Shown here piece by piece: positions 1,579-10,641 of a DNA stretch of 11,056 bases. The position numbers and the translations under genes are program-made. This stretch comes from an uncultured archaeon (GTDB taxonomy: Archaea > Asgardarchaeota > Jordiarchaeia > Jordiarchaeales > Jordiarchaeaceae), in contig CAZECW010000189.1 of NCBI GenBank assembly GCA_964510585.1, positions 1-11,056 on the forward strand. Reading direction: 5' to 3'. Within the stretch, counting starts at the first letter, position 1. Each line of letters begins with the position of its first letter. Under the pieces are notes generated by a model. The model saw only the letters and a program-made list of their open reading frames with translations. It did no database searches and was not told the origin of the DNA.

Positions 1579-2529
1579 TCACTTGAATATATCTTTGGTT
1601 TTCTTTTCCATCTCTTTAAGGTCGCCCTTCTTTAATTGCTTGGGATTATAGTATTTCGCCCTAGAGGATTCGGGAAGCCAGTTATCTGGCACACTAATGG
1701 TCTTGACTTCTCCAGCTGGAGCCGGTGCAGGTGTATGGGCTGGTTCTGCTGCGTATGCTAGTTGTGGTGGGGGTGGACCATACGTACCTACACCTGTTGG
1801 CTGAGTTGGGGCTTGATAGCCCGGAGGTGGGCCATATTGGACTGGCGAGGGGCGGGGAGCCCTTATTTGGGCTTCTGGTCTTATTTTTCCTAGAACAGCT
1901 GAAATTTGTTGTCTGAGCTGCATTGATGGTGGGGGTGCAATTCCCCCGGGGCCGTATGGTGTCTGGGGTGCGGTGGCTACAGCTTCCTGTAGCTTATTTA
2001 ACTCTTTTGAGAATACTGAGGGTTTAACGAATTTCTCCTCTACTATTCCTCCTCTGGAGGGTCTGTATCTTCCGAATTCTTCCTGTGATGGCGCTCCTCC
2101 CGACCCTAGGTTCTCTTTGGAGATGAAACTGGCGGGTTCTATTGTTCGTCTTGTAGGTTGTCTAGTGGGAGGTGTTCTTACTGGTGCTGGGTAACTTTCT
2201 TCTACTGGTGTAGGCTCTTCTCGTATTTGGGGTGTGTATTCTTCACTTGGGGTTGGTCCATGAACTATTGGTGTGGGTTTTGGTCTCATTTGAGGGGGGG
2301 CTTCTGGGGCTTCTTTAGGTTCGAGAGGAAAATGTTTTGGTGTTTCTCCCGAGAAGGAGGCCCAGTTTTCAATACTGTCGATTTTGCTTTCGAGGTCTAA
2401 GATTCTTTGATTTATGAAGGCGATTTCTTGCCTCACGGTTTCTGTGTATTGGTCAAAGACTTCCGCAATTTTTTCGATTCCTTGTTCCAGCCTATTTAAG
2501 GCTTCTTCAACTTTTTTGTCTCTACCCAT
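1579..2529 (-). CDS. Hypothetical protein: N-terminal coiled coil, long proline-rich disordered region, short conserved-looking C-terminal motif
   Basis: 316-aa ORF with ATG preceded by GGGGGAG; heptad pattern in residues ~7-55 (VEEALNRLEQGIEKI...INQRILDLESKIDSIE); Pro-rich residues ~64-272; no competing ORF of similar length. Confidence 0.85.
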   Translation of the reverse strand: MGRDKKVEEALNRLEQGIEKIAEVFDQYTETVRQEIAFINQRILDLESKIDSIENWASFSGETPKHFPLEPKEAPEAPPQMRPKPTPIVHGPTPSEEYTPQIREEPTPVEESYPAPVRTPPTRQPTRRTIEPASFISKENLGSGGAPSQEEFGRYRPSRGGIVEEKFVKPSVFSKELNKLQEAVATAPQTPYGPGGIAPPPSMQLRQQISAVLGKIRPEAQIRAPRPSPVQYGPPPGYQAPTQPTGVGTYGPPPPQLAYAAEPAHTPAPAPAGEVKTISVPDNWLPESSRAKYYNPKQLKKGDLKEMEKKTKDIFK

Positions 2530-2650: not shown

Positions 2651-3364
2651 GTGATAATTGATGGGGAAAAGTGTGTAGGTTGTGGGGCTTGTGTACCTTA
2701 TTGTCCTGTTAACGCCATTTTGCTGGAGAATGGTAAGGCAAGAATAGATGAGGCTAGGTGTGTTGAGTGTTTTACTTGTTACCGTTCCTGGATTTGTCCG
2801 GAGGGCGCGATTAAAATACCCGTTTTAGAGTGGCCCAGAGAAATTCGGAACGCCTTTAGTGATGTTGCGGGTACACACAAGGTGACGGGTATTCCTGGGA
2901 GGGGAACAGAGGAAATGAAAACAAATGATATTACTGATAGGTACGGCTGGGGAGAGGTTGGTTTTTGTGTGGAGCTTGGAAGACCAGGTGTGGGAACAAG
3001 CTTTAGGGAAGCAGAAAAAGTTTCTAAAGTTTTGGCTGGAAAAGGGGTGGAGTTTGAGAAGCAAAATCCCTATACACATCTTATAGATGAATCTGGAAAG
3101 TTGAGATTCAATATTGGTGAGGAAAGGGTTCTTTCCTGCTTGATTGAATTCAAAACCAAGCTAGAAAATGTCCCAGAAATCCTCAGAACACTGAGGAGCC
3201 TTGAAAGCGAAGTTGAGACCGTATTTACAGTGGGAGTGATTTCAAGGTTCAATCCTGATGGTTCTATTCCCATACTTTCCCTGATTGAAGGGGAGGGGTT
3301 CAAGGTGCGGCCTAATGCAAAAATCAACCTAGGTCTGGGAAAAAGACCCGGAGGCGATTCCTAG
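2651..3364 (+). CDS. 2x[4Fe-4S] ferredoxin-domain protein with an uncharacterised C-terminal domain
   Basis: GTG start; CxxCxxCxxxCP (C8,C11,C14,C18) and variant CxxCxxC-x5-CP (C37,C40,C43,C49); C-terminal ~180 aa with [11 protein letters not shown] and VELGRPGVG motifs. Confidence 0.9.
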
Positions 3365-3954
3365 TGACGCATACTCTACACCGTTTGGGCGATGAGGACT
3401 CCCTAAAAAAAGACTATGTTGTGGTGGCTATTTATGCTCATGGAATAAATGACAATCAACCAGATTCACGGGACAAGCTCCTGAGAATAGCTGAGATACT
3501 GAAATCTCAGAGACCCATAAACATGATAAATGAACTTCTTTGGAACTTTACACCAGCAATCCAGGCGGTTTACGGCGACAAAGGCTCGTTTAAAGCGGCA
3601 CTCAGGCTTCTTAAAAAGGAAGACTTGGGAATATCAATAACAGTCAGCGGATTAATGTCAGAAATTAAAGAAATAGCGGAGGAACTTGGTCTCAAGCTAC
3701 ACACAGTTAACCTCTCACTAGGAGTATTCGGAAACAAGAAATTGCTCCCCTCAGAAAAAATATTAGAAATGACCTCAATGTGCGGACACCACTGCGTATC
3801 CCCAAACCTAGTCAAAAATTTAGTACAGCAAGTAATAAAGAACAAAATAACACCCGAAAAAGCGGCTGAAGAACTCTCTAAACCCTGCATTTGTGGCGTT
3901 TTTAACAAAGCAAGAGCTATAGACCTAATAAAAAACCTAATTTCACAAAAATAA
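3364..3954 (+). CDS. Hypothetical protein with MCGHHC and PCxCGVFN Cys/His motifs (putative metal binding)
   Basis: 196 aa; GTG start overlaps the upstream TAG by 1 nt (TAGTG at 3362-3366); C140, H142, H143, C144, C175, C177; N-terminal THTLHR. Confidence 0.85.
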   Translation: MTHTLHRLGDEDSLKKDYVVVAIYAHGINDNQPDSRDKLLRIAEILKSQRPINMINELLWNFTPAIQAVYGDKGSFKAALRLLKKEDLGISITVSGLMSEIKEIAEELGLKLHTVNLSLGVFGNKKLLPSEKILEMTSMCGHHCVSPNLVKNLVQQVIKNKITPEKAAEELSKPCICGVFNKARAIDLIKNLISQK

Positions 3955-8277: not shown

Positions 8278-8647
8278 ATCTCCTTCAACTCCCTTCCAAA
8301 TTTTTTATAGAAATTTCACTTTAGGTTATATGTTAAGGGGCAACCTAATTTTTATACTTTACTAGGGCAGACTTTTTTTCGATTGTCTCAAAAAAAGAGC
8401 AATTTTAGAGATTTTTCCAATTTGGAGCCTAAAAAAAGGGTGTTTGGGGGTTCGGTGAATTTCAGGGTTTTTACACGAATAGTAACGTTTAATAAGCCAG
8501 TCGCAGACTAATAAACATAAAAATCTAAAATATTTCAAAGAAAATCCTAAAAAACATAAAATCATTAACAGGTTTAAACTGTTGATAATAAACATAAAAT
8601 TGGAAGAATGAATTGCTCAATATTTATGGGAAAAGGATGTTTGAGAA

Positions 8648-9355
8648 ATGAGCCAGCCAAACTCGAAAAGCAGCATGTATAACAAGAACCCGCTGTCTGC
8701 AGGTGTACTGGTTGAGTTTCGTTCTTGGTCAGAACATATGCACTCTGACTCCTTTTCCCGAACCAGAGAGAATAAACTTGCAAATCCCAATGTTCTCAAT
8801 AAAATAGTCCAAAAAATCTGTCACACTCTCCAAAAAGAGGGGCACTTTTGCCTGTATGTATGTGTCTTTTGTACAAGTTATACTATTTCCCAGCCTCAAA
8901 GACGTGAAAACGAATTAGTTTCAGCTGCTGTCACACTGTGGAACGAAACAATTGTTCTTAGCTTTCAATTCTGTATTTCTGAAAGCGTAAGTCTGGCTGA
9001 AGTGTGTAGTAGAAAAGCTGCACTAATCATTAATGTTGACGGGTACGTTGGGGGAGGGGGGAACATTTACTCTAATTTTTCCTACCAGCGAGGATTACTG
9101 CATAATTTATGCGTGAAGCCTGCATACCCCAGGCAAGTATGCAACACGAAAAAAACTTTTTCGTTTGCCTTAAGTGTGGTAAACTGGTCGGAGTGTTTTG
9201 TGCGTGTGACTTTTGCTTTTACATTCCTGCTTATCGGGTTGGGGGTCGAAGGACAGAGAGAGGGAGAAGTTCTTAAGGGGGAGGTAAAGCTCGAGCCGTG
9301 GAGAACAATCGCCTCTGGAGATCCAAGATATGTGGCTACGGCCGCGAGTCTATGA
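8648..9355 (+). CDS. Orphan ORF, 235 aa, Cys-rich (9 Cys); coding status uncertain
   Basis: Long open frame with no real gene on the opposite strand to explain it; ATG start with weak AAGGA upstream; no recognisable motif, and composition is atypical of the other proteins here. Confidence 0.25.
   Translation: MSQPNSKSSMYNKNPLSAGVLVEFRSWSEHMHSDSFSRTRENKLANPNVLNKIVQKICHTLQKEGHFCLYVCVFCTSYTISQPQRRENELVSAAVTLWNETIVLSFQFCISESVSLAEVCSRKAALIINVDGYVGGGGNIYSNFSYQRGLLHNLCVKPAYPRQVCNTKKTFSFALSVVNWSECFVRVTFAFTFLLIGLGVEGQREGEVLKGEVKLEPWRTIASGDPRYVATAASL
9109..9276 (+). CDS. Possible small Zn-finger-like protein, 55 aa (or 45 aa from ATG 9139)
   Basis: Manual translation: MREACIPQASMQHEKNFFVCLKCGKLVGVFCACDFCFYIPAYRVGGRRTERGRSS*; CxxCG...CxCxxC; below the ORF-track length cut-off; nested out of frame in the 235-aa ORF. 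Confidence 0.25.
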   Translation: MREACIPQASMQHEKNFFVCLKCGKLVGVFCACDFCFYIPAYRVGGRRTERGRSS

Positions 9356-9382
9356 TCAATGATCTTCTGCTCTCTCTGTCCT
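9250..9382. ncRNA. Candidate structured RNA / long imperfect inverted repeat (~130 nt rod)
   Basis: Perfect 13-bp terminal stem AGGACAGAGAGAG (9250-9262) / CTCTCTCTGTCCT (9370-9382); nested stems AGAAG/CTTCT, GCTCG/CGAGT, GCCGTGG/CTACGGC, ACAATC/GATATGT (one bulge), TGG/CCA; followed by TATTTTTGTT on the + strand. Folded by eye only. Confidence 0.4.
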
Positions 9383-9651
9383 ATTTTTGTTGGAGGGGTC
9401 TGGGGGGACTTCGAGTACTTGGACTGGATATTTGAAATCCACTATTAGATGTTAGATTTGAAGTTTTATTTTCTGCGGAATTATATTTCGCTATAAAAAG
9501 AATCTAGAACTTTTAATTTTTTCAATATGCCTAGAGCATGTGGGGTTGTTTTGTAAATGTTTCCTGTTTTGTCTAGATGCTTTTTTGTGTGAGGGTGTTT
9601 TGTGGCATTTTTTCGTTTCAATTTTTGTGAGGTGTGGTGTTTGGTGGGGTT

Positions 9652-10641
9652 TTATTGTAGGAGTCCGTTTTCTTTGTAGCGTTTGAGGGTTAATGCTGCG
9701 TCTCTTGATATTTCTTGGTCTTTTAGGGCTTCTTTTAGTGGTTTTGTGGCTTTTTTGTGCATTAGTTTCCTTTTGGCGTATAGGGCAAGTAGTCTGGCTG
9801 CGGCTTTGCGTGTGTTTTTGTTTTTGTCTTTTAAGAGTTTTACTGAGTTTTCTAGGACTGTTTGGTCGGTGAGGTTTTTGTTGGTGTAGATTATTAGTGC
9901 TTCTGCGGCGTTTTCTCTTACGTGCTCGTTTCTGTCTTTGAGTAGTTTGGCTAGTAGCTTCAATGCTTTTTCGTCTGTGAGTCCTTTTTGGGCGTATACT
10001 CCTAGGGTTATCGCGCAGTTCATTCTCACTCCCGCCTCTATGTCTGTGAGTCCCTTAACCAGTTTATCTAGTATTTTTGCATCCAATATGTCTTGGTCGG
10101 CGTAGTTTAGGATTGCGTAGGATGCGTTTCTTCGCGTACTTCCATCCTTATCCTCCAATAGTCTTACAAGCTGGTCGAAGGCTTCCCTAATCAAAAATTT
10201 TTCCTCCGCAAAGAAGCCGATTATGATTGCGGCGTTTGCCCGGACCTTTTCGAACCTGCTATTAAGGAGTTTTATGAGAATTTCGCTGCCCAAGTCTCCT
10301 TTGTCCAAGAGTCCCAGTTGGGCATAGTTGGCTAAGGCGTAAGTTGCATTGGTGATTATGTCTCTTTCTCCATCTTCCTTCAACATTTTTGTGAGGTAAC
10401 CTATGGCGCTTTTAGTGTAGAGCTTATTTTGAGCGTACTTGCCCAAGGTCCAGGCAGCTGTGCTTCTTGCGGCTTTGTCTTCGTCGCTTAGAAACTTTGT
10501 CAGAAAAACTAGCACATTCTTGTTAAACTCGCCCTTAGAAGCGTATTTAGCTGTTTCAAACAGGGCTTCGCGGCGCACCTTGTACCTTTTGTCTTGAAAA
10601 CTCCCCAAAAGAGCTCCTACCTTTGCACTACTCATCATCAT
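9652..10641 (-). CDS. HEAT-repeat (alpha-solenoid) protein, about 8 repeats
   Basis: Recurrent ~38-aa units L-x-x-L-L-x-D-x-D/N-x-x-V-R-x-N-A-A-x-x-L-x-x-Y-A (e.g. LVRLLEDKDGSTRRNASYAILNYA, LAKLLKDRNEHVRENAAEALIIYT). Three tandem ATGs; RBS GAGGT (10647-10643) spacing favours 10635 or 10638 as the true start. Confidence 0.92.
   Translation of the reverse strand: MMMSSAKVGALLGSFQDKRYKVRREALFETAKYASKGEFNKNVLVFLTKFLSDEDKAARSTAAWTLGKYAQNKLYTKSAIGYLTKMLKEDGERDIITNATYALANYAQLGLLDKGDLGSEILIKLLNSRFEKVRANAAIIIGFFAEEKFLIREAFDQLVRLLEDKDGSTRRNASYAILNYADQDILDAKILDKLVKGLTDIEAGVRMNCAITLGVYAQKGLTDEKALKLLAKLLKDRNEHVRENAAEALIIYTNKNLTDQTVLENSVKLLKDKNKNTRKAAARLLALYAKRKLMHKKATKPLKEALKDQEISRDAALTLKRYKENGLLQ

Follow-up and report, generated by a model that had tools for sequence, protein, structure and literature searches.

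A Jordarchaeales coiled-coil protein with a conserved basic C-terminal module as a candidate actin regulator

Profilins and gelsolins are the only regulators of Asgard actin named in the literature consulted, and the nucleation, tethering and bundling of filaments in the archaea most closely related to eukaryotes are, to our knowledge, still to be explained. The present work concerns a gene located at positions 1579-2529 (minus strand) of an 11,056 nt stretch of Asgard archaeal DNA (contig CAZECW010000189.1 of assembly GCA_964510585.1, the whole stretch being referred to as the window). A first-pass annotation had proposed that the encoded protein combines a coiled coil and a proline-rich region with a C-terminal WH2/beta-thymosin-like actin-binding motif, and the locus thus raises the question whether, and by which of its elements, such a protein could act on actin. 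Judged from its sequence, the protein is a reasonable candidate for an actin regulator, and the interpretation of the annotation as a whole is partly supported: the layout and the conservation of the tail hold, assignment to the WH2/beta-thymosin class does not, and the tail resembles the actin-contacting linker of a gelsolin encoded by the same genome, with the register shifted by five residues towards the C-terminus relative to the motif singled out in the annotation.

Layout and conservation of the protein

Translation of window positions 1579-1680 (minus strand) yields WLPESSRAKYYNPKQLKKGDLKEMEKKTKDIFK followed by a stop codon, so that the coordinates given in the annotation are exact and the C-terminal sequence quoted there is the true end of a 316-amino-acid open reading frame (ORF) at 1579-2529. 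The arrangement of a coiled coil, a proline-rich disordered region and a conserved basic tail is borne out by an AlphaFold2 model (run with the family alignment), by the composition of the protein and by the family alignment itself. The corresponding features, all on the minus strand and in window coordinates, are the following (pLDDT, predicted local distance difference test):

1579..2529: whole gene, 316 amino acids plus stop, monocistronic
2359..2529: residues 1-57, N-terminal coiled coil (AlphaFold2 helix 2-57, pLDDT 86-97; Ile at a and d)
1696..2358: residues 58-278, Pro/Ala/Glu/Gly/Thr-rich disordered arm with two conserved islands (pLDDT mostly <50)
1972..2064: residues 156-186, island 1, RPxRGGIVEEKFVKPSVFSKELNKL (AlphaFold2 helix 170-186)
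1864..1935: residues 199-222, island 2, PPSMQLRxQISxVLGKIRPEAQ (AlphaFold2 helix 201-216)
1582..1695: residues 279-316, C-terminal module, SVPDNWLPESSRAKYYNPKxLKKGxLKxMEKKTKDIFK (19 invariant positions)
1624..1635: residues 299-302, LKKG, containing the LKK of the first-pass annotation ([LIV][KND]KG across the family)
1597..1620: residues 304-311, LKEMEKKT (family form [LIV][KR][DE][ML]EKKT), matching the gelsolin linker ILKKMEKKT
1585..1629: residues 301-315, terminal helix predicted by AlphaFold2, amphipathic and very polar (hydrophobic moment 0.58, mean hydrophobicity -0.47)

The N-terminal coiled coil is probably an oligomerisation helix. The arm which follows it contains 20.8% proline (residues 58-278), and its residues 59-164 and 227-274 are modelled as low-confidence disorder. 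The stretch highlighted in the annotation represents the last 33 residues of the 38-residue C-terminal module. A folded C-terminal domain composed of three short helices was considered and rejected: modelling of residues 150-316 gives a predicted template-modelling score of 0.22, and the short helices therefore appear not to pack into a domain. Scanning of the whole protein and of fragments against Pfam returned no family, only coiled-coil noise below threshold, and a feature search of the ESM Atlas with the whole protein and with the tail gave nothing usable.

The family to which the protein belongs comprises 17-18 proteins, all from Jordarchaeales/Freyarchaeota (the homologs being named Candidatus Jordarchaeum, Jordarchaeaceae, Jordarchaeales and Freyarchaeota), and it is new in that it is absent from the literature and libraries searched. 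The same small protein set is returned by a word-indexed search of 5.8 billion clusters, by an exhaustive HMMER scan of 1.84 billion representatives (8 clusters of the family) and by screening six-frame translations of 201 genomes from the phylum, the latter placing full-length copies exclusively in two families of one order (5/5 and 4/5 genomes). Some genomes also encode a paralog in which the coil and the RGGIVEE stretch are kept and a Cys-rich end replaces the tail.

Four conserved islands stand out in this fast-changing protein, namely the N-terminal coil, the GGIVEE island, the PPSMQLR island and the C-terminal 38 residues. In island 1 (RGGIVEEKFVKPSVF) GGIVEE, V168 and F173 are invariant, the tail-less paralog included, and the conserved positions of island 2 are L205, R206, S210, V212 and L213. 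While overall identity among 14 aligned homologs drops to 35-40%, the C-terminal module is the best-conserved part of the family, with its 19 invariant positions. Conservation of the tail among homologs, which the annotation had put forward as a check, is observed in all full-length homologs. The octapeptide pattern YNPxxLKK is itself retained in part: P296, K297 and K301 are invariant, whereas position 293 is Y/H, 294 is Y/F, 295 is N/D/S, 299 is L/I/V and 300 is K/N/D. The family form of the motif is [YH][YF][NDS]-P-K-x-[LIV]-[KND]-K-G, in which variation at the aromatic and N/D positions is of the kind that the thymosin pattern permits, G302 is invariant and K300 is replaced by N or D in seven of the 14 aligned sequences. 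The module is single in the host genome, and a search for the tail in proteins of other architecture among 5.8 billion clustered proteins recovered the same family only and no fusion. The presence of invariant polar residues in the tail (EKKTK, RAK, PK, KG) within a fast-evolving disordered protein fits a specific protein interface.

The tail compared with WH2 motifs and with the host gelsolin linker

The host is a hot-spring Asgard archaeon of the Jordarchaeales (assembly of 3.78 Mb, 96% complete). Its genome encodes one true actin (384 amino acids, 456 bits to Pfam Actin), which is 77-90% identical to actins across the phylum, a profilin (125 amino acids, E 1e-26 to solved Asgard profilins) which the Pfam profilin model missed, a 201-amino-acid two-domain gelsolin (2DGel) and a GelX-like single-domain gelsolin. 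The annotation had made its reading depend on an Asgard host possessing actin and profilin, and all of these are present. The 2DGel gene is located as follows:

G000:C25:23013-23615 = L062:1480-2082, minus strand: minimal two-domain gelsolin without tail, with the WH2-like linker motif LKKM

In relatives the linker motif of 2DGel reads LKKT or LKKV, and the four sister-genus genomes which carry the new family gave single-domain gelsolin matches only.

The proposal that the tail is a true WH2/beta-thymosin domain is very unlikely. It draws on a resemblance to WH2 (PF02205), thymosin beta-4 and ciboulot, consisting of a basic L-K-K downstream of a Pro-rich region, of the form [YF][NDS]PKx[LIV][KND]K that retains the thymosin/ciboulot spacing with its Y/F and N/D alternatives, and of a helix after LKK, as in thymosin beta-4. 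Membership is nevertheless not supported. With a threshold of E<=10, hmmscan finds no Pfam WH2 or thymosin match in the whole protein or in residues 270-316, and a six-frame scan of the genome with PF02205 hits one unrelated place and leaves the gene unmatched; a PDB search with the tail profile retrieves no WH2, thymosin or other actin-related chain. The amphipathic helix which would occupy the actin cleft ahead of LKK is lacking as well: residues 287-298, flanked by Pro286 and Pro296, score 0.18 in hydrophobic moment, and the prediction for them is coil with single turns; the sole predicted helix of the tail (301-315) comes after LKK. At residues 299-302 the family has an invariant Gly where WH2 motifs have T/V, and the middle Lys of the element (K300) is not conserved, being N/D in half of the aligned sequences. 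The tail is therefore not classed as a WH2 or beta-thymosin domain. As for the short pattern [FY][DN]xxxLK[KH] on which the annotation had relied, it is present in the tail, but its frequency in the host proteome is that of chance (5 occurrences seen versus 4.3 expected from composition in ~1.03 million residues of crude ORFs of the genome), so that the match in itself would be what chance gives and only its conservation would be informative.

A different comparison is provided by the D1-D2 linker of Asgard gelsolins. In the solved Asgard gelsolin-actin complexes the linker motif contacts actin, is WH2-like and runs up the actin face (PMC9433394, PMC7444086); its variants are LRRV/LKKV in Thor, LKHV/LRRT in Heimdall and LVDV/LKDV in Loki (PDB 7whg, 7whf, 7c2h; PMC9433394, PMC7444086), and the Loki form bridges to actin Asp25 via Ca2+ (PMC9433394). 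The linker of the host 2DGel is DQDLAKSILKKMEKKTHP, in which ILKKM corresponds, in the alignment, to the LVDV of Loki (2DGel, 7whg) and the LKKV of Thor (2DGel3, 7c2h); the stretch of the tail compared with it is PKQLKKGDLKEMEKKTKD. The matching core LK[DE]MEKKT (304-311) lies five residues downstream of the LKK noted in the annotation. Across the family residues 304-307 read [LIV][KR][DE][ML], a form compatible with the Asgard gelsolin variants LKDV/LKKM, and every member has an acidic residue at the third core position, a feature of the Loki-type LKDV/LVDV.

The likeness stands out from the background of the host genome. When all six frames of the genome are considered, LK.MEKKT occurs at two sites only, the 2DGel linker and the tail. 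A hidden Markov model (HMM) of the tail, searched with --max (no filters) against the 4,878 crude ORFs of the host, finds the 2DGel linker as its best non-self match at 9.4 bits (E 0.12 proteome-wide), the next match being at 5.6 bits, and none of 400 column-shuffled tail profiles of the same composition reaches 9.4 bits on gelsolin (maximum 7.1, 99th percentile 2.6). Alignment of the tail family with seven Jordarchaeales 2DGels by hhalign gives a single match, which falls on the linker (18 columns, 50% identity, P 0.005) and pairs DLAKSILKKMEKKT of the tail with QLKKGDLKEMEKKT of the host 2DGel. Recent gene conversion from the gelsolin gene was rejected: 24/54 nucleotides are identical and shared residues have different codons, and the likeness is therefore one at protein level. 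Taken together, the resemblance may be regarded as independent, statistically non-trivial and indirect support for an actin-directed scaffold, in the downstream register.

With the Asgard 2DGel linker the tail thus shares the core L-K-x-[MVT], the acidic third residue of the Loki type, a basic context and a host with actin. It differs in being placed at the extreme C-terminus of a coiled-coil/disordered protein, in being predicted helical and not extended, and in lacking a preceding gelsolin domain for anchoring in the actin cleft; Pfam detects no gelsolin-homology domain (PF00626) in the protein, the likeness being confined to the linker peptide, and the EKKT of the tail is not conserved in gelsolins of other lineages.

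Related scaffolds and genomic surroundings

The annotation had also likened the protein to eukaryotic actin assembly factors. The coil, the Pro-rich disordered region and the basic terminal motif do recall Ena/VASP and WASP/WAVE proteins, from which the protein differs in having no EVH1, WHD, C or A element. Features specific to Ena/VASP were not found: Pfam detects no EVH1, the coil is N-terminal, and there are no conserved Pro runs of five or more. A profilin-recruiting element of the Ena/VASP or formin type, as implied by the polyproline claim, is not supported, because the Pro runs of the arm are short (PPP, PPPP) and their positions are not conserved. In human VASP the G-actin-binding motif (GAB) spans residues 223-239 and the F-actin-binding motif (FAB) residues 259-278 (PMC10340426); GGIVEE of island 1 (160-165) resembles GGLMEE at the start of FAB over six residues only, and the order of domains is reversed. 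A profile of the N-terminal region (residues 1-57; 2359-2529, minus strand) has as its top PDB match BRICK1/HSPC300 of the WAVE complex (3p8c chain E, E 1.5e-4), aligned over 48 gapless columns with 13 identities to the protein, and a single-sequence query gives E 0.074. Next in rank are designed coiled coils (E 2.2e-4 and 2.7e-4); since these score like BRICK1, the match points to a coiled coil of similar rules and not to descent.

A probable relative of the coil is found in a family of ~145-amino-acid proteins from Loki-type and other Asgard archaea (at least 225 clusters, all annotated 'hypothetical'), in which a coiled-coil head is followed by a (GPPGGPP)n arm and then by the end helix LRGAIMxELKxLF[ASN][KR][KR], which is invariant. 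The N-terminal coil of the Jordarchaeales protein matches this head over 54 columns (hhalign Prob 96.3%, E 1.7e-9) and, by this profile comparison, is probably homologous to it. The two families follow the same design of a head, a floppy arm and a conserved terminal peptide; the protein studied here differs in being twice as long, order-restricted and equipped with a different tail. Its tail and the end helix align with E 0.13 over 3 columns in hhalign, and a search of the host genome with the end-helix profile left the gene unmatched; the best match of the end helix (LRGAIMGE) is the RGGIVEE island, at a non-significant E of 0.055. The end helix also aligns gaplessly with the human VASP F-actin-binding motif (as given in PMC10340426), but a PDB profile search with it finds no actin-related chain, and no profile search confirms kinship with VASP.

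In 4/4 Loki-type contigs the small coiled-coil/proline gene lies ~130 nt downstream, on the same strand, of a gene for a ~207-amino-acid all-helical protein, which has a sub-threshold Pfam FCH/F-BAR match (E 2e-4, 22 bits versus a cut-off of 27.8); a gene for an Elf1 zinc ribbon comes next, close by. No homolog of the ~207-amino-acid protein was found in the host genome, nor was a BAR-like neighbour found beside the gene studied here. The host encodes two further coiled-coil proteins, one ending in the pan-Asgard helix and one with a coil matching that of the protein studied here. The scaffold of a coiled coil and a disordered arm thus seems to be re-used with different terminal peptides in this organism. 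The loci concerned are listed below:

L046:1459-1911, L045:355-792, L073:6001-6438, L074:6001-6456 and L075:6001-6444, plus strand: ~145-amino-acid family members
L073:5248-5868, L074:5247-5870, L075:5240-5869 and L046:723-1346, plus strand: ~207-amino-acid all-helical protein
G000:C58:40977-41681 = L082:871-1575, plus strand: host coiled-coil protein with 13 PPxAG repeats and the pan-Asgard end helix LRNAMMAELSRLKKLF
G000:C149:11250-11981 = L084, minus strand: host 244-amino-acid coiled-coil protein; its coil matches that of the protein studied here (hhalign E 2.6e-4), its tail differs

At its own locus the gene is a unit by itself: the neighbouring BKACE gene is oriented towards it, and the gene for a 4Fe-4S protein away from it. 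BKACE and DHH genes adjoin it in the genus and in Freyarchaeum, and the divergent clade of the family has quite different neighbours; these being metabolic and not kept beyond the genus, the gene neighbourhood gives no functional hint. DNA of the gene is present in contigs from hot-spring metagenomes. In one RNA-Seq run short contigs ~90-95% alike span 1500-2499 and leave the flanks uncovered, which is at most a weak hint of transcription of a relative, because DNA carry-over is possible in that run.

Elsewhere in the window, positions 2651-3954 (plus strand) encode a 237-amino-acid protein with an N-terminal 4Fe-4S dicluster domain, whose stop overlaps the start of a 196-amino-acid protein without Pfam family; the two genes likely form a two-gene unit divergent from the gene of interest. 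Scans of the window for tRNA and Rfam elements gave no matches. Positions 8300-9650 comprise ~1.3 kb without a convincing ORF, tRNA or Rfam match, including an odd 235-amino-acid frame at 8648-9355 (plus strand) and a few short AT-rich direct repeats at 8509-8599, and positions 9652-10641 (minus strand) encode a 329-amino-acid protein of HEAT/Armadillo-like repeats (HEAT_2, E 8e-33).

Possible functions of the C-terminal module

According to the explanation which we prefer, the protein would be a Jordarchaeales-specific scaffold oligomerised by its N-terminal coiled coil. Formation of a trimer is suggested, because Ile occupies both core positions and trimeric coiled coils are matched by the Loki-type profile. 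Each chain would then extend a long, Pro-rich and disordered arm in which three short motifs are conserved; the last of these is the 38-residue C-terminal module, most likely a peptide that binds a partner. The most likely partner would be actin, along whose face the basic stretch would lie as the gelsolin D1-D2 linker or the central LKKT/V of WH2 does. Its binding core would be [LIV][KR][DE][ML] at 304-307 followed by EKKT, and LKKG at 299-302 a possible second, degenerate copy; the invariant acidic third residue would mirror the LVDV/LKDV of Loki and its Asp-Ca2+-actin bridge, which may make binding dependent on Ca2+. An oligomer presenting several such peptides could then tether or bundle filaments, or help to nucleate them. 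That the tail binds actin in the manner of the gelsolin linker is put forward tentatively, as a possibility short of an even chance. More doubtful is the complete picture, in which the protein would represent a third kind of archaeal actin regulator, a stand-alone trimeric coiled coil whose disordered arms each end in a gelsolin-linker/WH2-like peptide with an acidic, perhaps Ca2+-bridging third residue and gather several actin subunits, so as to nucleate, bundle or tether filaments of Lokiactin.

Several observations weigh against binding to actin. The scores are low in absolute terms, the 9.4 bits of the tail HMM being accompanied by an hhalign probability of homology of 7%, and blastp-short ranks the linker third (E ~0.9). 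In related genomes the linker reads LKKTEKKT, LKKVDKKT, LKKTAKKT or LKKVRVEK, which leaves only L-K-x-x-x-K-K-T as a shared core, and the 7-of-8 identity found in the host is therefore partly luck; in addition, the match had been noticed before its statistics were run. Residues 301-315 are predicted by AlphaFold2 to be helical, whereas LKKT elements bind actin in an extended form, and neither a cleft-binding amphipathic helix nor a gelsolin domain is found ahead of the motif by Pfam and hydrophobic-moment analysis. With respect to distribution, the tail occurs in one order only, yet actin, at ~80% identity, is nearly invariant phylum-wide, and no copy of the gene was found in one genome of the same order (G070) which has actin and 2DGel. 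Finally, the G1-G2 linker region of gelsolin is also a phosphoinositide-binding site, and the likeness could therefore reflect lipid binding.

One alternative is that the tail is a short linear motif for another, possibly lineage-specific protein, the whole being a multivalent adaptor unrelated to actin and its likeness to the linker a coincidence of two Lys/Glu-rich peptides. We consider this somewhat unlikely. In its favour, the module is limited to one order and absent from other protein contexts, the genes around it are metabolic and differ outside the genus, every similarity score to actin-related motifs is weak in absolute terms, and the two further host proteins that join a coiled coil to a disordered arm (C58, C149) have quite different tails, suggesting a scaffold re-used for several partners. 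Against it, no candidate partner emerged, and the gelsolin linker is the sole match above background in the proteome. An association with acidic lipids, whereby the basic terminal helix would make the protein a peripheral membrane tether and the likeness would reflect the phosphoinositide role of the linker, is judged improbable. It would agree with a Lys content of 24% in the last 38 residues, with the predicted amphipathic helix 303-316 at the extreme C-terminus after a flexible linker, which is the usual position for membrane targeting, and with the regulation of Asgard profilins by phosphoinositide (PIP) lipids, whose headgroup enzymes are encoded by Lokiarchaeum. The helix is, however, very polar (mean hydrophobicity -0.47), with a net charge of only +1 and four acidic residues; EKKTK is invariant, whereas membrane helices usually tolerate substitution; and conservation extends 20 residues upstream of the helix (NWLPE, SRAKYYNPK). 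Non-specific binding of the Lys-rich tail to nucleic acid or another polyanion is hardly credible in spite of that Lys content, as non-basic residues (N, W, L, P, A, Y, G, E, T, I, F) are invariant over the 38 positions and Pfam detects no nucleic-acid-binding domain elsewhere in the protein.

Known terminal motifs were also compared with the tail. A proteasome-docking HbYX tail was rejected, because the distance to the carboxyl end varies among members, which end in IFK, IFKK, IFKG or IFVR. PIP-box and ESCRT MIM1 readings of the terminal helix were discarded by eye, the hydrophobic spacing being unsuitable.

If the actin idea fails, the protein would still represent a new, strongly conserved Jordarchaeales adaptor family with a partner worth finding. 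If actin binding by the tail is true, the family would represent a minimal precursor of the way in which eukaryotes combine an oligomeriser with a Pro-rich arm and a WH2 motif, or a convergent analogue of it, and it would mean that archaea possessed this design principle of the eukaryotic assembly factors or evolved it independently.

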